From: a virus | Taxonomy: Duplodnaviria > Heunggongvirae > Uroviricota > Caudoviricetes | IMG/VR virus record: IMGVR_UViG_2585427736_000016 | DNA length: 38,179 nt | Strand: one strand, 5' to 3' | In this document: positions 6,805-36,779 of the stretch, one piece after another | Layout of the letters: each line of letters starts with the position of its first letter | Numbering within the stretch: position 1 is the stretch's first letter | Translations under genes and position numbers: made by a program | Notes under the pieces: model-generated | Seen by the model: the letters and a program-made list of their open reading frames with translations, nothing else | What the model was told of the DNA's origin: nothing | Database searches by the model: none

Positions 6805-6900
6805 CTAAAGAGTACTGTAGGTATTTTATTGTGTAAATACCCAAGGTATTTATTTTTGGTGAAATAATGATAAGCAAATGAATACAAAGGATATTTATTT
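6805..6900 (-). promoter_or_regulatory. OL operators and PL promoter region
   Basis: Three 15-bp dyads of type A(A/G)TAC-N5-GTATT (AGTACtgtagGTATT, AAATACccaagGTATTT, GAATACaaaggATATT) matching the two OR dyads; candidate -35 TTTACA and -10 about 17 bp downstream on the minus strand. Confidence 0.5.
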
Positions 6901-8091: not shown

Positions 8092-8165
8092 ATTCTAATA
8101 GCTAAGGTACTTAAACTAAAAATACCCTGAGTATTGATTGCTTTGAATACCTGTAGTATTCTTTG
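8092..8165. promoter_or_regulatory. OR operators with divergent PRM and PR
   Basis: Dyads AATACcctgaGTATT (8121-8135) and AATACctgtaGTATT (8146-8160) plus a weaker AATAGctaagGTACT (8097-8111); PRM -10 TAGAAT at 8092-8097, 6 nt before the cI ATG; PR candidate -35 TTGATT (8134-8139) and -10 TATTCT (8157-8162). Confidence 0.55.
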
Positions 8166-13322: not shown

Positions 13323-13491
13323 CCCATCCCAATCCCTTCAATACCAGAAAGAAAGCGTCGAGCGGGCTTTAACGTGCGCTAACTGCGGTCAGAAGCTGCA
13401 TGTGCTGGAAGTTCATGTATGTGAAGCGTGCTGCGCAGAACTGATGAGCGATCCGAATAGCTCAATGTACGAGGAAGAAGACGATGAATGA
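13315..13491 (+). CDS. ninF: NinF protein, 58 aa
   Basis: [58 protein letters not shown] matches lambda NinF as recalled. Confidence 0.7.
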   Translation: MLSPSQSLQYQKESVERALTCANCGQKLHVLEVHVCEACCAELMSDPNSSMYEEEDDE

Positions 13492-14206
13492 GTTAATAAA
13501 TGGCAATGCCATCAAAATGACAAGCATTGAAATCGCTGAGTTGGTGGGTAAGCGTCATGACAATGTGAAACGTACCATCGAAACGCTGGCTAAAAATGGT
13601 GTTATCCGGCTTCCTCAAATTGAGGTTTCCGAAAGAATCAATAACTTAGGGTTCAATGTTCAGTACGAGCATTACGTCTTCGAAGGCGAACAAGGTAAGC
13701 GAGATAGTATTGTTGTTGTTGCCCAGTTGTCGCCAGAGTTCACCGCTCGCCTTGTTGACCGCTGGCGAGATCTTGAAGAAGCTGCGGTTAATATCCCCAA
13801 AACGCTACCGGAAGCGTTGCGCCTTGCTGCTGATCTTGCTGAGCAGAAAATGCAACTGGAAAACCAGCTTGCAATTGCCGCACCTAAAGTTGAGTTTGCC
13901 GATCGCGTTGGCGAGGCCAGCGGAATTTTGATTGGAAACTTTGCAAAGGTTGTCGGTATTGGTCCAAACAAACTGTTTGCGTGGATGCGCGATCACAAAA
14001 TCCTTATTGCTTCAGGTTCCCGGCGCAATGTGCCAATGCAGGAATATATGGATCGCGGCTATTTCACAGTGAAAGAAACAGCGGTCAACACAAATCACGG
14101 AATACAGATATCGTTCACCACAAAAATCACCGGGCGTGGTCAACAGTGGCTGACCAGAAAGCTGCTCGATAACGGAATGCTGAAAGTAACAGGGGAGGCT
14201 GCTTAA
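13484..14206 (+). CDS. antirepressor-like regulator (Rha-type N-terminal domain, KilA-C-type C-terminal domain), 240 aa
   Basis: N-terminus MNELINGNAIKMTSIEIAELVGKRHDNVKRTIETLAKNG is the Rha signature; C-terminal part resembles the KilAC antirepressor domain. Confidence 0.7.
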   Translation: MNELINGNAIKMTSIEIAELVGKRHDNVKRTIETLAKNGVIRLPQIEVSERINNLGFNVQYEHYVFEGEQGKRDSIVVVAQLSPEFTARLVDRWRDLEEAAVNIPKTLPEALRLAADLAEQKMQLENQLAIAAPKVEFADRVGEASGILIGNFAKVVGIGPNKLFAWMRDHKILIASGSRRNVPMQEYMDRGYFTVKETAVNTNHGIQISFTTKITGRGQQWLTRKLLDNGMLKVTGEAA

Positions 14207-30110: not shown

Positions 30111-31412
30111 ATGGCTACTTGGCAACAAGGAATCAACTCAGGCGGCTTTCTTGCTGGTATCGGTGGGCAAAACTCAAATGCGCCAAAGGCAAGTGATGTA
30201 AGTGAGGCGTTGGCCTATATTCGCCAGAACAACGAAATGGAGCGCTCAGGTCGCAATAACATCGGCCTTCAGGCGTTGCAGGGGCTTGGTAGTGTCGCTC
30301 AAACATATCAAGCCGCAAAGCAACAGGAAGCGGATGCTGCATTCCAAAAAGAATATGCGGCAGCCATCCAGTCAGGTGATCGGCAGCAGGTGCGAGATCT
30401 GATGACCAAATATCCTGGTCAATTAGAGAAGATTCAGTCTGGTATGAAGTGGGCAGACGAAGACCAGCGCAATTCTATCGGCACCTTAGCGGCTGGCGCA
30501 CGCCTTGCTGCCTCGTCTCCAGAAGCAATGCAATCATGGCTGCAAAACAACGCCAAGGAACTGACTCGCGTAGGTGTTGACCCTAACAGCGTTGCTCAGA
30601 TGTATCAGCAGAATCCTTCAGGATTTGGTGAGTTTGTTGATCACCTTGGGATGGCTGCTCTTGGTCCGATTGATTACTTCAATGTTCAGGACAAGATGGC
30701 TGGTCGTGAGATTGATCGCGGAAAACTTGCAGAGACAATCCGCAGCAATCAGGCTGGAGAAGCACTAACAGCGCGTGGTCAGGACATCCAGATACGTGGA
30801 CAGAACATCAGCGCACAGAATGCTGCTCTTTCCCGCGAAATACAAAGAGCAGAATTACAAGAAAAGGCTCTGGACAGACAGATAGCCAGAGAAAGCAATC
30901 AGTTAAAGCTTGAAGAGCTAAAACAGAAACAGGTAGATGTTCGGCAAAAGGCTGACATAGCCCGCGCTGACAGGCAGGCCGCCGCTCAGGGTGCAGTTGA
31001 TACGTTCAGCACAGCGCTTGATTCTCTCAACGAGATAGAGCAAAGCCCCGGCCTTTCAAAAGCAGTAGGAATTCGCTCAGCGTTTCCAACAGTTCCTGGC
31101 TCTGATGCGGCTAACTTTGAAGCAAGGCTCGACACCTTTAAAGCTCAAACTTTCCTTCCTATGGTGCAGTCCCTTAAGGGTATGGGGGCTCTTTCAGATG
31201 CTGAGGGTAAAAAATTATCCGATGCGGTTGGTGCCCTAAGCCCCAAAATGAGCGAAAAGGCTTTTCGTGACTCTATCGGAAAGATTAGAAATCAGCTTGA
31301 AAGCAAGTTGAGCACTGTTAAAAAACAGTTTGATTATCAGGAGCCAGTACAGAATACGCCAGGACAACAATCTACTGCTGGCAGTAACTTTTCTTCACTA
31401 TGGGGTGATTAA
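30111..31412 (+). CDS. ejection protein, gp20-like, 433 aa
   Basis: Position and composition (Gln/Ala-rich, coiled coil). Confidence 0.65.
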   Translation: MATWQQGINSGGFLAGIGGQNSNAPKASDVSEALAYIRQNNEMERSGRNNIGLQALQGLGSVAQTYQAAKQQEADAAFQKEYAAAIQSGDRQQVRDLMTKYPGQLEKIQSGMKWADEDQRNSIGTLAAGARLAASSPEAMQSWLQNNAKELTRVGVDPNSVAQMYQQNPSGFGEFVDHLGMAALGPIDYFNVQDKMAGREIDRGKLAETIRSNQAGEALTARGQDIQIRGQNISAQNAALSREIQRAELQEKALDRQIARESNQLKLEELKQKQVDVRQKADIARADRQAAAQGAVDTFSTALDSLNEIEQSPGLSKAVGIRSAFPTVPGSDAANFEARLDTFKAQTFLPMVQSLKGMGALSDAEGKKLSDAVGALSPKMSEKAFRDSIGKIRNQLESKLSTVKKQFDYQEPVQNTPGQQSTAGSNFSSLWGD

Positions 31413-33409
31413 TGGCTAAAGCATGGAAAGATGTTATCGCCTCTCCACAGTATCAGGCGTTAGCACCAGAACAAAAAGCGCAGGCTCAGGAGCAATACTT
31501 CAATGAAGTCGTTGCCCCGCAAGCCGGAGAAAATGCAGAGCAGGCTAAGCAAGCTTTCTATGCTGCCTATCCATTGCCATCTGTGCAGCCAGTGGAGACA
31601 CAACAACCAGTAGCACAGCAACAACCACAGCAAAGTGGATTTATGTCTGATCTTGGTGAAGCAGTAAAAGAGACTGGTCGCGGACTGGTGCAGGCTGGCG
31701 TGAACGTGGCAAACATACCTGCATCAGTTGCCGATGCTGTAACAAGCGCGGCTGCTTGGGCTGGCGGTAAACTCGGTATTGGCGATGGTACATATCAACC
31801 AGCACCACGAGTAACAACGCAGGGATTAGAGCAGGACTTTGGCCTTCAGCAAGGTGCGCTGACTCCACAAACGACAGAGGGAAGGGTATTTGCTGAAGCA
31901 TTGCCTTACCTCACTCCTGCTGGCGTTGAGAGAGCGGCGGCACAGGCACCAACACTTGCTGGTCGAATTGCTCAGGGGGCAACTCGACTTCTCGCAGAAA
32001 ACGCAGTTGGATCACTTGCTGCAAACAGTATGAAAGATGATGCGGAAGCACTCGCTACCGATTTAGGTGTTGGCGTTCTGGCAGGCGGCGCTATTAACGC
32101 TGCTGGACGTGGATTAGGTGCTGCTTATCGTGGCGTTCGCGGTGCTATTGCGCCAGAAGCGCAGCAAGCTATCAGATTTGCAGAGCGTGAAGGAGTTCCT
32201 CTGCACACCACAGACCTGTTACAACCCACTTCCCGCGTCGGAAAAATGGCGCAGACTACAGCAGAAAATATCCCTCTGGCTGGCACAAGCGGAATGAGAG
32301 CAACGCAACAGGAAGCGAGAAGCCAGTTGGTGCAGAGATTTGCCGATAAATTCGGTGAGTATGATCCAGCGGTTGTTATTGACAGCCTTAAAGCGAAAAC
32401 ATCAGGAATTCGTCGTGCCGCCGGTAATCGACTGGAGCAGGTTCAGAATGCTATGGCTGGAGTAAACATTCAGCCTGCGCGAGCAATTCAGCAGATTGAT
32501 ACAGAAATATCTAATCTGCAGAAGCTTGGTAAGGTAGCTGATAACGAGACAATTTCAAAACTTCAGTCATATCGTGATGAGCTTGTTCGCAATGCTGGCC
32601 CTGATGGTCCGGTTAATCTGGATTTGAAGCAATTAAGCGATCTGCGCAGCCAGTTCAGAATGGACGTGAAGGGGGAGCGACCAGTGTTACCAAACCGTTC
32701 CGATGCCGCCATTCAACGTGTTTACAAGGCGATGACCGACGATATCAATGGTGCCATTGGTCAGAATCTTGGCAACGATACTCTTCGTAAATATCAGCAG
32801 GCCAATGCCGTCTACGCTGACGAAGCGGCGAAACTAAAGAATACCAGGCTGAAGAATGTTCTCATGAAAGGCGACCTGACGCCGGAAGTTGTGAATAACA
32901 TGCTATTCAGCAAGAACAAATCGGAAATTAAGACGCTGTATAACTCAGTTGGTCGCGTTGGAAGAGCGCAAATGCGCAATGGCATCATTGGAAAGGCGAT
33001 GGAGAAATCTGGCGGATCCCCTGACCAGTTCCTTCGACAGCTTAACATCCTGCAAAACCAAACGGGTATCACATTTAAGGGGCAGGATGCTGCTTACCTG
33101 AGGGGATTGAAAAACTACCTGCAATCCACGCAGCAGGCTGCAAAAGCGGCAGTAACAACACCAACAGGGCAGCAAACCATCCCGTTCATTATTGGATATG
33201 GGACGGCAATGAACCCGGCGACAACTGGCGCAGCAGTAAGCTACGGCCTTCTTGCTCGCGCCTATGAGAGCGAGTCATTCAGAAATGCAATGCTCCGAAT
33301 GGCAAACACCCCACGCGGATCAACAGCCTTTGAGAAAGCAATGCATCAGGCACAAAAGGCAATTAACGCCCTGACTCAAGGTGCCAAGTCTGATGCGTTG
33401 TCAGAATAG
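31412..33409 (+). CDS. ejection protein, gp16-like, 665 aa
   Basis: Position and length; ATGA overlap with the gp20-like gene; Ala/Gly-rich. Confidence 0.65.
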   Translation: MAKAWKDVIASPQYQALAPEQKAQAQEQYFNEVVAPQAGENAEQAKQAFYAAYPLPSVQPVETQQPVAQQQPQQSGFMSDLGEAVKETGRGLVQAGVNVANIPASVADAVTSAAAWAGGKLGIGDGTYQPAPRVTTQGLEQDFGLQQGALTPQTTEGRVFAEALPYLTPAGVERAAAQAPTLAGRIAQGATRLLAENAVGSLAANSMKDDAEALATDLGVGVLAGGAINAAGRGLGAAYRGVRGAIAPEAQQAIRFAEREGVPLHTTDLLQPTSRVGKMAQTTAENIPLAGTSGMRATQQEARSQLVQRFADKFGEYDPAVVIDSLKAKTSGIRRAAGNRLEQVQNAMAGVNIQPARAIQQIDTEISNLQKLGKVADNETISKLQSYRDELVRNAGPDGPVNLDLKQLSDLRSQFRMDVKGERPVLPNRSDAAIQRVYKAMTDDINGAIGQNLGNDTLRKYQQANAVYADEAAKLKNTRLKNVLMKGDLTPEVVNNMLFSKNKSEIKTLYNSVGRVGRAQMRNGIIGKAMEKSGGSPDQFLRQLNILQNQTGITFKGQDAAYLRGLKNYLQSTQQAAKAAVTTPTGQQTIPFIIGYGTAMNPATTGAAVSYGLLARAYESESFRNAMLRMANTPRGSTAFEKAMHQAQKAINALTQGAKSDALSE

Positions 33410-33498
33410 CTTCGCAAACACCAGGAACGCGCAAAAACCAAATATGTAGAACGCAATATTCAGCATATCTCTTTGCATAAATCCTCCGTAACTGATAG

Positions 33499-33759
33499 TT
33501 AGCTGCTGTCTTTTTTATATAGCTCTTTGAGCGTATCAAAGACAATTTTCTTAACCATATCAGATTGTTGTTCTGCCATACGCTCTGCATCGTCAATGTA
33601 AACAGATGCAGAGCTTTGTTTAGCCAATGATTCTTCAATCGCTGCAATTATCTCTGAGTTCAGCGACCTGTTATTCATCTTCGCACGCTGCTTAATTTTC
33701 GCGTGGAGTTCATGCGGAAGTCTCAAGTGAAACTGCGCCTCGTCGTATTTGCTGTACAT
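33499..33759 (-). CDS. mnt: Mnt-type ribbon-helix-helix repressor, 86 aa
   Basis: ...MNNRSLNSEIIAAIEESLAK...DAERMAEQQSDMVKKIVFDTLKELYKK parallels P22 Mnt (...NGRSMNSELLQIVQDALSK...DAERLADEQSELVKKMVFDTLKDLYKK) as recalled; divergent from the tailspike. Confidence 0.75.
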   Translation of the reverse strand: MYSKYDEAQFHLRLPHELHAKIKQRAKMNNRSLNSEIIAAIEESLAKQSSASVYIDDAERMAEQQSDMVKKIVFDTLKELYKKDSS

Positions 33760-33880
33760 CCTTGATGCCTCACCAGTTGGGTGGAATGGCATCGTAACCT
33801 ACTGGATAAATACTCAATAGTACCATTTCGGTATTCAATCACATCATGGTTGCATCATATCATTCGTCTGGAGCAATGAA

Positions 33881-35698
33881 ATGTCAGATATCACCGCAAA
33901 TGTTGTGGTAAGCATGCCTTCTCAACTCTTCACTATGGCTCGTTCTTTTAAAGCCGTAGCTAATGGAAAGATTTATATCGGAAAAATTGACACTGATCCG
34001 GTAAATACTGAAAACCAGATCCAGGTTTATGTGGAGAACGAAGACGGCTCTCATGTTCCTGTATCGCAACCAATCATCATTAACGCTGCTGGTTACCCGG
34101 TATATAACGGACAGATCGCCAAGTTCGTAACTGTGCAAGGCCATTCTATGGCTGTTTATGATGCATATGGGGCGCAGCAGTTCTATTTTCCTAATGTGTT
34201 GAAGTACGACCCTGACCAGGGAATTATCAGGTTAAAAGAAGAAATTGCGAAAGATGATGGAGAGAAATATATCGGAATATGCCCTGACGTTTTTACGCTC
34301 AGAACAATTGAGCCATCATTCGTCGGGCAAAATATAACTGTTCGTGGATACTACTCTGACACACCCGGGCTTGGGGGAGGAACGTTTATAGCCTTTTCCA
34401 GTTCTGAAGCTGACGATGGTGTGAATATTTTTGTTACCCCCGGCGGTAAGCGATGGAAGAGAGCAGGAAGCCACATCGATATTCCGGTAGAGAACGGTGG
34501 CATGATGACATCATGTACGGCTGAGCAAAACAGTGAAGCCTTTGAACGCCTGACTGCATGCCTTCCATATGAAGGAGGTACGCTCAGACTCAATGGATTT
34601 TACGATATTAAGTATGGCGCTATCGTGCCTCCACGTGTCACGCTGGAGGGGTGCGGTATGGATTCCTGTGGATTAATTAAAACAGGTAACGATATTAAAA
34701 CCGTTCCGGATCGCATGTGGCAGGGTGTACCACACAGCTTCTCCAAAGACTTTATTGTTGCGGTAGATATGGATAGTGACACATCAGGTGATTTAAGCGG
34801 GACACAAACAAGAAGCACCAGAATAATTGGATTGAGTATTCTAAATACTGCGCCCAATCCTTGTGATTACGGGATATATAGCGCTATCAGTTACAATGTG
34901 CGCCTTCAGGACCTGTATATTCATAGGGTGAAAACCGGTTATCGCACTAGTGATAGTTGGTTGCAGACATGGGAAAACATTACTATTCAGGATGTCGTTA
35001 CTGGAGTTAAAATCGAAGCAGGTGGAACCACATATAATTTAAACAATATTTATGTGAAAACATGTTCAGGTGTTGCATATGATTTTAATAACATTACATA
35101 TAGCAGCCTGACTTGTTTGGCTGCTGACTTCGTTAATGGTACTGGCTATAAATTTAAAGATTGTACTGGAGTGAATCTATCTGGATGCGGAAGCGAAGAA
35201 AGCACTGGTAAAATATTTGATATAAATGGTAGTCGAATTAACGTAACTGCATTTAGAGGGGTTAATCATCATGATGGAGGAGTTGAAGCTGTATCTCTGG
35301 AATCGTGTTTCATCTCATTGGTTTCATCTCATTTTTCTAGTTACTCTGGAGGCTCATCTAGCAAATACATATATCTTAATGATGCAACTGCAAATTTTAA
35401 TGGTACGGTAATTCCCGACAACACCACTGATTCTATTAGATGGGGTAGTGGGCAGAGCAGGATCAACAAGGTTGATTCAGGCGGCACCTATAGTATAACC
35501 GGAAACTCATCATGGACTGCATTATGCAGACTTGAGTCAGGATATATAACGGTTCTATCAGTATCACCACCCACGGGAGATACAACTAATTTCCCGTTTG
35601 GCACCAAGTGGGAATTGCTTGGTCAGGTTTCTACCGGACCGTGGAAGTGGACATACGTATCAACTGGTGAATGGAAGGTATCCGCAACTACCACGTAA
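33881..35698 (+). CDS. tailspike protein (conserved P22-type head-binding domain plus distinct beta-helix receptor-binding domain), 605 aa
   Basis: First about 113 aa ([42 protein letters not shown]...NVLKYDPDQ) match the P22/Sf6 N-terminal domain as recalled; remainder is Gly/Asn/Thr/Ser-rich repeats in AT-rich DNA. Confidence 0.9.
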
Positions 35699-35726: not shown

Positions 35727-36779
35727 CTAATATCTGAATTTGTTTGATATCTTTTTCCCAATATCCATTGCTGGTTTTTCTATCGCAATAAATGATATCA
35801 GTCCAGCAATAAGTGATAGTGCTATGCATAAAACTTGATTTAAGTACAGGTTTATATCAGGTAATAACCTGAATGTTATCTGCTGTATTAAAAATCCCCA
35901 CAAGTAAACGCCATATGACACATCATGTTTTATTCTTACTGATTTTATTATTTTTGTTGTTGATAAATACACGAAAAATGTACATGCGCAAAAGTAAAAA
36001 AGCATATGCTTGAGTGTTGGGTCTGACACAAAATTATATAATATTGCAAATCCTATTGGTGCATGTGGTGAAATGTATATTTTGTCCTTGTTTATAGCAT
36101 ACAATGCGCCAAGAGCAAAGCATGGAGCCATTAAAAACACATCTGCATTATCGTTATTTATAAAAATTAATTTGTTCCATCCCAATACTGGAAGCGCTAT
36201 TATTGATAAGCATATGATGCTAGGTATTATTCTTCCTCTGCTCTGAGTTATCATGTAGCATGCTAGGAGCACGACATAAGATGCAACTTCATATGGTATT
36301 GTCCATAAGGAACCATTAACTGAGCTTTTATATATATTTTCCTCAAAAACACCAGGAAGAAAAAATTGCATATCCAAATATGAGCTTTTAAATAGATAGC
36401 TGTACGTCAGTGTATCTTTTAAATAAGATGTCATTGAGTGCGTTGTAAGTAATGGTCCAACAATGAATGTCGCGAATAATAAAACAAAAATGAATGCGGG
36501 GAATATTCTAAAAAATCTAGATGAAATAAAGTGTGGTATGTTGCGCGTTGTTAATAAACTATTAGTTACAAGCATTCCACTAATAAAGAAAAATATTTTT
36601 ACAGCAATGGAACCAGTATATGTAAATGTGAAAACAGACTGAACCGGCTCCTGGGCTCCATCAGAATTTGCAAGATAATATGAATGGGCAAATATTACAG
36701 AAATTGCACAAAAAATACGTATTAAGTCAAGGTTATTGTTATCCCTTTTTAGCGCATCTTTGACCAACATAAAAATCAC
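35727..36779 (-). CDS. membrane acyltransferase-3 family protein (O-antigen O-acetyltransferase-like serotype-conversion gene), 350 aa
   Basis: About 10 predicted TM helices; N-terminal ...DLIRIFCAISVIFAHS... with conserved His/Arg typical of the OafA/Oac family; strongly AT-rich; sits between tailspike and int as oac does in Sf6. Confidence 0.8.
   Translation of the reverse strand: MIFMLVKDALKRDNNNLDLIRIFCAISVIFAHSYYLANSDGAQEPVQSVFTFTYTGSIAVKIFFFISGMLVTNSLLTTRNIPHFISSRFFRIFPAFIFVLLFATFIVGPLLTTHSMTSYLKDTLTYSYLFKSSYLDMQFFLPGVFEENIYKSSVNGSLWTIPYEVASYVVLLACYMITQSRGRIIPSIICLSIIALPVLGWNKLIFINNDNADVFLMAPCFALGALYAINKDKIYISPHAPIGFAILYNFVSDPTLKHMLFYFCACTFFVYLSTTKIIKSVRIKHDVSYGVYLWGFLIQQITFRLLPDINLYLNQVLCIALSLIAGLISFIAIEKPAMDIGKKISNKFRY

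Follow-up and report, generated by a model that had tools for sequence, protein, structure and literature searches.

In phage P22, Mnt is an immunity function within immI. To our knowledge, the biology of this textbook DNA-binding protein has been studied only in its role as the controller of ant in P22. The interval between gene 16 and the tailspike gene was named the "ant moron" by Villafane et al (2008; PMC2629481), who described ten types in sixteen genomes and found that ST64T, ST104 and Para1 have kept only mnt and one gene of unknown function. Mnt-only ant morons have been described in the Salmonella phages ST64T, ST104, L and ST160/SE1 (PMC2629481; bioRxiv 10.1101/2020.10.05.325894). 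The mnt-only layout was already known in 2008 and 2020, and the module analysed here is present in phages that had already been sequenced, so that it is in this respect ordinary. What we add, from sequence comparison, is an operator assigned by positional homology, three matched classes of protein–operator specificity, and evidence of selection.

The window, as we call the whole 38,179-nt stretch of DNA that was analysed (IMG/VR record IMGVR_UViG_2585427736_000016), is a complete P22-like (Lederbergvirus) prophage contig, and a second IMG/VR contig, IMGVR_UViG_2609459831_000013 (L024), is identical to it. Its sequence is a mosaic of HK620, Sf101, IME10 and Sf6, with an immunity region of the HK620 type. 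The gp16-like gene is the final gene of the late operon ahead of the mnt module, and an integrase gene follows the acyltransferase-like gene at the right end of the window (Table 1). The first-pass annotation of this DNA had described a lone mnt gene 90 bp after the gp16-like gene and divergent from the tailspike by 121 bp, with arc, ant and sieA missing. This description holds: the gap to the gp16-like gene measures 89 bp, the region from ATG to ATG (33760–33880) is 121 bp long, and tblastn searches of the window with P22 Arc, Ant and SieA returned nothing significant, the single match to Ant (E = 0.098) falling in the KilAC gene at 13892. The mnt gene lies between gene 16 and the tailspike, is transcribed opposite to the late operon and shares its interval with neither arc nor ant. 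No arc gene was found divergent from mnt, the divergent gene being the tailspike. We also found no counterpart of the sar antisense RNA of P22 immI: there is no arc–ant junction here, and Rfam gave no significant family in 33200–34100, its only match being a meaningless snoRNA (E = 0.75). RNA folding of the intergenic region on both strands was no better than that of shuffled sequence. No terminator was predicted in the 89-bp spacer between the convergent gp16 and mnt stops; the first ~80 bp of this spacer are also present in Sf6, which has no mnt.

Table 1. Features of the mnt module and of related sites in the window.
Feature	Position	Strand	Basis or remark
HK620-type cI operators, OL and OR, six sites: AGTACTGTAGGTATT, AATACCCAAGGTATT, AATACAAAGGATATT, AATAGCTAAGGTACT, AATACCCTGAGTATT, AATACCTGTAGTATT	6811–6895 and 8097–8160
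gp16-like DNA ejection/transfer protein	31412–33409	+	ORF; homologous records: DNA transfer protein / P22-gp16 family
Spacer, 89 bp, convergent gp16 and mnt stops	33410–33498	.	Sequence reading
mnt homolog, 86 aa	33499–33759	-	Pfam and PDB matches
Perfect 10-bp inverted repeat with 13-nt loop, within mnt; followed on + strand by TTTGTTTAG	33582–33614	+	Folding
mnt Shine-Dalgarno GGTGAGG	33768–33774	-	Sequence; aligned with GGAG preceding P22 mnt
Putative Pmnt -10, TACGAT	33791–33796	-	Aligned with annotated P22 Pmnt -10 TATCAT
Putative Pmnt -35, TTGAGT	33812–33817	-	Same columns as P22 Pmnt TTGAGA
17-bp dyad AGTACCATTTCGGTATT, putative Mnt operator	33819–33835	.	Positional homology, co-variation
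Tailspike leader and ribosome-binding site (GGAG, 33870–33873)	33836–33880	+	No consensus-grade sigma-70 promoter
Tailspike, P22-type head-binding N-terminal domain	33881–35698	+	Pfam Head_binding 9.4e-67
O-antigen acyltransferase-like gene	35727–36779	-	Right end of window, after tailspike

By its sequence, the mnt product is a true member of the Mnt repressor family, including the C-terminal helix for tetramer formation. The N-terminal ribbon-helix-helix matches Pfam PF03869 (Arc, 1e-14) and PDB 1mnt (3.4e-19, residues 6–79), and the C-terminal tetramerisation helix matches PF11423 (Repressor_Mnt, 3.3e-14) and PDB 1qey (1.7e-08). The protein has the same two-domain build as P22 Mnt, with 48% identity, but three of the four DNA-contact residues of P22 Mnt are changed (R2 to Y, H6 to Q and N8 to H); we take residues 2, 6 and 8 to be among these four contacts from the list in the Mnt literature. 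The mechanical mnt ORF encodes 97 aa and extends to 33792. This start is probably not used, and the ATG at 33759, giving 86 aa, is probably the real one, because the upstream ATG falls within the putative Pmnt -10, because the matching upstream ATG of Gally-type relatives is not in frame, and because the Shine-Dalgarno sequence lies 8 nt ahead of the ATG at 33759.

The best PHROG match to the window Mnt is PHROG 795 (1.4e-35), which is labelled "partition protein ATPase". Many RefSeq phage records give Mnt this label too, among them those for the mnt of P22 itself (NC_002371) and for gp14 of Sf101 (NC_027398), which is mnt; the IME10 mnt carries no annotation. As a practical point, this label is wrong.

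We aligned the mnt-proximal intergenic regions of the window, Sf101, JEP4, VSe13, Gally, ST160, Brookers, P22 and epsilon34 with MAFFT. The window dyad occupies the exact columns of the annotated P22 Omnt, AGGTCCACGGTGGACCT. An invariant CAAT precedes the dyad in every aligned sequence and, read on the mnt strand, corresponds to the TTG of the annotated P22 Pmnt -35 (TTGAGA-17 bp-TATCAT). Since the dyad, the -35 and the -10 all share P22 alignment columns, the promoter–operator architecture of P22 appears to be retained in the window. The 17-bp dyad directly upstream of the -35 is best read as the Mnt operator: the comparative evidence argues strongly for it, and we infer that Mnt binds there. 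Its perfect TACC-N5-GGTA core is present in a single copy in the 38-kb window, and cores with one mismatch are about as frequent as chance predicts (7 found, 6.1 expected). Across 150 related loci there is exactly one dyad of this type per locus, always 60–75 bp upstream of mnt.

The putative -10 is kept in all relatives that share the window type of Mnt (the QFHLR class, see below). What counts against Pmnt is its poor spacer, which is 15 bp long here compared with 17 bp in P22, JEP4, ST160 and Brookers. In lysogens of the related phage Kapi1, mnt was undetected by RNA-seq (PMC12922286), a loose comparison as that locus has both arc and ant. The sole leftward intergenic match of the consensus scan lies elsewhere, at 33887–33859, where 9 of 12 positions agree; 1.8 such matches are expected in the region by chance, it overlaps the first tailspike codons, and it is not conserved in sister classes. 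If this promoter were real, the operator would sit downstream of its start site.

Comparison of the Mnt β-strand residues with the dyads showed that the two change together, and by sequence there are three classes of matched protein and operator. In the HFNFR class (P22, epsilon34, Pluralibacter and Pectobacterium), the dyad is AGGTCCACGGTGGACC plus a variable 17th base; mnt of this class is always beside arc, and also beside ant in P22, epsilon34 and Pluralibacter. The QFNLR class (Gally, ST160/SE1, the Proteus phage Brookers and Providencia) has AAGACCAC-N and a right half that reads GTGGTCT in Gally and ST160 and is degenerate in Brookers and Providencia. The QFHLR class, to which the window belongs together with Sf101, IME10, JEP4, VSe13, Buttiauxella and Serratia, has (A/C)GTACC(A/G)TTT(C/A/T)GGTA(T/C)G. 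The CC/GG pairs hold the same dyad positions across all three classes. An arc gene adjoining mnt was found only in the HFNFR (P22) class. These classes provide natural protein–operator pairs for the study of ribbon-helix-helix specificity.

The JEP4-type Mnt (L004 2998–3252; L089–L139) has an unrelated C-terminal third, which points to an exchange of domains near residue 55. In the Proteus phage Brookers (L290 2492–3237), mnt is followed on its own strand by a gene for a putative lipoprotein, an arrangement suggesting that accessory genes expressed from the prophage can be driven by Pmnt in some relatives.

The first-pass annotation had presented the locus as a reduced immI. Read as a recent loss, this does not fit the mnt–operator–tailspike layout, which is old and widespread and is under purifying selection. 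It occurs in Escherichia, Shigella, Salmonella, Buttiauxella, Providencia and a Proteus phage; among these, the Salmonella examples ST160 and VSe13, the Buttiauxella and Providencia genomes and the Proteus phage have mnt directly divergent from a tailspike. Of 5426 complete E. coli genomes, at least 126 contain the full gp16–mnt–tailspike junction, E. coli W among them, and IMG/VR has 228 relatives of the window Mnt and 220 of the JEP4 type. In Escherichia and Shigella, mnt without ant is thus both common and conserved, and it is found in Salmonella and other genera as well.

Among the 80 nearest IMG/VR loci the 89/121-bp layout is near-invariant, and mnt, found in 78 of them, is intact at 86 aa in all but one (77/78). 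In IMG/VR relatives, mnt has a pN/pS of 0.14, with 11, 10 and 33 variable sites at the three codon positions. The 121-bp intergenic region has a mean nucleotide diversity of 0.014, which falls to 0.006, the lowest value of the region, over the -35 and the operator. For comparison, the values are 0.042 for mnt third positions, 0.146 for gp16 third positions and 0.016–0.028 for the tailspike leader; the 89-bp spacer, with 0.044, is similar to silent sites. This pattern favours a function for the lone mnt, which does not appear to be decaying and which we infer to bring a selective benefit. Broken copies of mnt are seen occasionally (L048, L295). In L295 (Citrobacter sp., ~4001), mnt has only 4 codons left and TACT stands in place of TACC in the operator core; it is the one clearly broken copy, a single example of gene and operator decaying jointly.

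Some ten relatives carry an HNH_3 + AP2 homing-endonuclease gene (~180 aa, ~540 bp) between the Mnt operator region and the tailspike (L059 2830–3369 and L043 2827–3369; also L013, L054, L062, L065, L072, L074, L080 and L085). It is oriented like mnt and lies immediately behind what is left of the first five codons of the tailspike (ATGTCAGATATCACC). Two distinct endonuclease sequences are found at this one insertion spot.

We consider it probable that the window module is a complete, working Mnt control unit in its smallest form, consisting of mnt, Pmnt and one 17-bp operator within the variable ant moron. By analogy with P22, the prophage would express mnt leftward, against the late operon, and an Mnt tetramer would bind the single dyad next to its own -35. 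Since the dyad abuts the -35 of Pmnt, Mnt would regulate its own synthesis. A self-regulating Mnt module without ant is the most likely reading, and it would have no further target in cis: the window contains neither arc nor ant, has a single operator and offers no good promoter in the rightward direction. Transcription of the tailspike most likely comes from late-operon read-through and not from a promoter controlled by Mnt. An unseen target of Mnt beyond its own operator is likely, because pure self-control gives no evident reason for strong purifying selection across genera.

We then considered a target at the tailspike itself. Mnt could repress a rightward promoter, a vestige of Pant, and so keep the tailspike silent in the lysogen, much as the first-pass annotation had proposed when it named the tailspike promoter as a possible target. 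The operator does sit where P22 Omnt covers the Pant start site, and the best rightward candidate at the Pant position, ATGGCA-17 bp-AATACT (33786–33814; 8/12 matches), would start inside the dyad. The entire 121-bp region is, moreover, more conserved than silent sites. However, this candidate is below the scan threshold, and the consensus scan of the mnt–tailspike region returned neither a rightward sigma-70-like promoter nor a terminator, so that no consensus-grade promoter faces the tailspike. Nor does conservation of the candidate extend to the JEP4, Gally and ST160 classes, which have no promoter at the equivalent positions despite the same layout. Finally, the tailspike is part of the late operon, and the endonuclease gene described above separates the operator region from the tailspike in about ten relatives. 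We regard repression of a tailspike promoter as rather unlikely, and control by Mnt of such a promoter is unsupported.

The sequence ahead of the tailspike varies among relatives. In sister classes it includes a CCGTAGCC...GCTGCGG hairpin and is the P22 sequence found after the ant terminator; because of this match, the block belongs to the tailspike leader and not to mnt. P22 (L007 1560–1740), JEP4 (L004 2860–2900) and the Gally and ST160 types have a short GC-rich hairpin ahead of the ribosome-binding site of the tailspike, and the flanking block "attcaccgtagcc" is present in two copies in P22. Sf6 has a pre-tailspike hairpin of different sequence (L003 2225–2260). The window-type leader has no GC-rich hairpin; it has CAATCACATCATGGTTGCATCATATCATTCG, which shares GGTTGCATC with the loop of the Sf6 hairpin. 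Within mnt, the perfect inverted repeat listed in Table 1 has a predicted stability of -18 kcal/mol (z -3.4) on the + strand and was missed by the terminator scan owing to its loop limit. The stem is kept in relatives, including two variants whose pairing is preserved only as G-U on the + strand. We speculate that it could act as an intrinsic terminator or attenuator of rightward (late-sense) transcription.

A second explanation places the target in trans, on incoming genomes, where Mnt would either repress an antirepressor that follows the same operator or, by occupying the incoming operator, impede late transcription as it enters the tailspike, and so add a layer of immunity. This would agree with the role of Mnt as an immunity function in P22, with the existence of at least three matched protein–operator specificity classes, since immunity determinants diversify in this way, and with purifying selection in the absence of a target in cis. 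Against this, none of the ~170 QFHLR or QFNLR loci has the operator ahead of arc or ant, which weakens the simplest form of trans immunity. Transcription complexes modified by a late antiterminator usually get past bound proteins, which speaks against hindrance of late transcription. Nor do operator copies in viral contigs point to such targets. In a scan of IMG/VR with a 16-mer of the operator, 77 of 120 matches lay beside mnt, and the copies away from mnt were chance matches in unrelated low- or high-GC contigs or belonged to one unrelated family. We consider immunity in trans unlikely.

The unrelated family just mentioned consists of viral contigs with ~54% GC that carry the 16-mer GTACCGTTTCGGTATG twice, 515 bp apart (L171, L176, L191, L198, L218, L226 and L270). 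The copies, for example at 2522–2537 and 3037–3052 of L176, lie in a repeated promoter-like block ~20 bp upstream of small genes, with terminase and DNA methylase genes nearby. Neither the phage collection nor the complete E. coli genomes that were searched contained a match to this family.

It is also conceivable, if improbable, that Mnt has a job independent of ant that went unnoticed in P22, either as a gate on the operator upstream of the tailspike or as a transcription factor with host targets. We raise this because a lone Mnt persists in at least two of the matched classes and in several enterobacterial genera under purifying selection. If true, the gate would restrict transcription running into the tailspike, in the resident prophage as well as in incoming heteroimmune relatives that share the operator.

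That mnt is a functionless and decaying leftover of immI after the loss of arc and ant is very improbable. The authors of the phage L study raised this possibility for its own poorly conserved mnt homolog (bioRxiv 10.1101/2020.10.05.325894), Sf6 does well without any mnt, and broken copies such as those noted above are occasionally seen. These points are outweighed by the low pN/pS, the concentration of variable sites at third codon positions and the near-complete set of intact copies, as well as by an operator–promoter region that is the most conserved stretch locally and a layout that persists across several genera.

The dyad also resembles the cI operators of the prophage, a likeness to which the first-pass annotation had drawn attention. 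The six HK620-type cI sites fit AATAC-N5-GTATT (15 bp), with AATACC-CAA-GGTATT as the best copy, and the AGTACC and GGTATT of the dyad match hexamers of these sites. This part of the observation stands, whereas the link to cI does not. In the dyad the hexamers are 5 bp apart, giving 17 bp, and in the cI sites 3 bp. The last T of the dyad (33835) is replaced by G in the other 75 IMG/VR relatives comparable upstream, a T being found in only one other lineage (L291). The dyad lies 25 kb away from OL and OR. Sf101 and IME10 carry both dyad and mnt, although they have a different immunity and are absent among the matches to the window immunity region; HK620, which has the window-type cI, has neither mnt nor dyad. 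The likeness is best taken as coincidental because of the spacing, the terminal T and the fact that the dyad travels with mnt and not with cI.

The Rha/KilAC antirepressor-like gene that the first-pass annotation placed far from mnt is indeed there, at 13484–14206 (Pfam ANT 7.7e-33, Phage_pRha 1.9e-08). Its suggested control by Mnt finds no support, as there is no operator-like site near 13484; the gene overlaps the upstream ORF within the nin operon and has no intergenic or promoter region of its own. The genome-wide search for operator-like dyads that had been proposed, with 13484 as a place of special interest, gave no second operator in the window and none upstream of that gene. A search with the 17-mer allowing up to 3 mismatches found only a broken match inside the portal gene, and searches with RTACC-N5-GGTAY and TACC-N5-GGTA gave only chance-level matches in coding regions. 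The chance that the dyad is a cI site of the prophage, or that Mnt controls the Rha/KilAC gene, is on this evidence very small.

The present analysis thus sharpens a small question, namely what Mnt does without ant. Sf101 (NC_027398), IME10 (NC_019501) and the E. coli W prophage carry the same module with 96–99% nucleotide identity (96–97% for Sf101 and IME10, 99.2% for E. coli W) and the same 89/121-bp layout; their operators end in G, whereas that of the window ends in T. The ant morons of the JEP4/CUS-3 type share with the window the N-terminal QFHLR, the dyad core and the direct divergence from the tailspike. They differ in that Rha, KilA and a C2-like repressor separate gene 16 from mnt, and the JEP4-type Mnt has another C-terminal domain, with no match to Pfam Repressor_Mnt. 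In ST64T, ST104, L and ST160/SE1, mnt is present without arc and ant as in the window, but together with one extra gene, whereas the window has mnt alone. ST160 also has mnt directly divergent from the tailspike and a dyad of its own, which, unlike that of the window, belongs to the QFNLR/AAGACCAC class. Compared with P22, the window lacks arc, ant, sar, sieA, orf59a and the strong Pant promoter, and its operator has GTACC-N5-GGTA in place of GGTCCAC-G-GTGGACC. Common to both are the position and orientation of mnt, a dyad that abuts the Pmnt -35, and CC/GG pairs at the same positions of that dyad.
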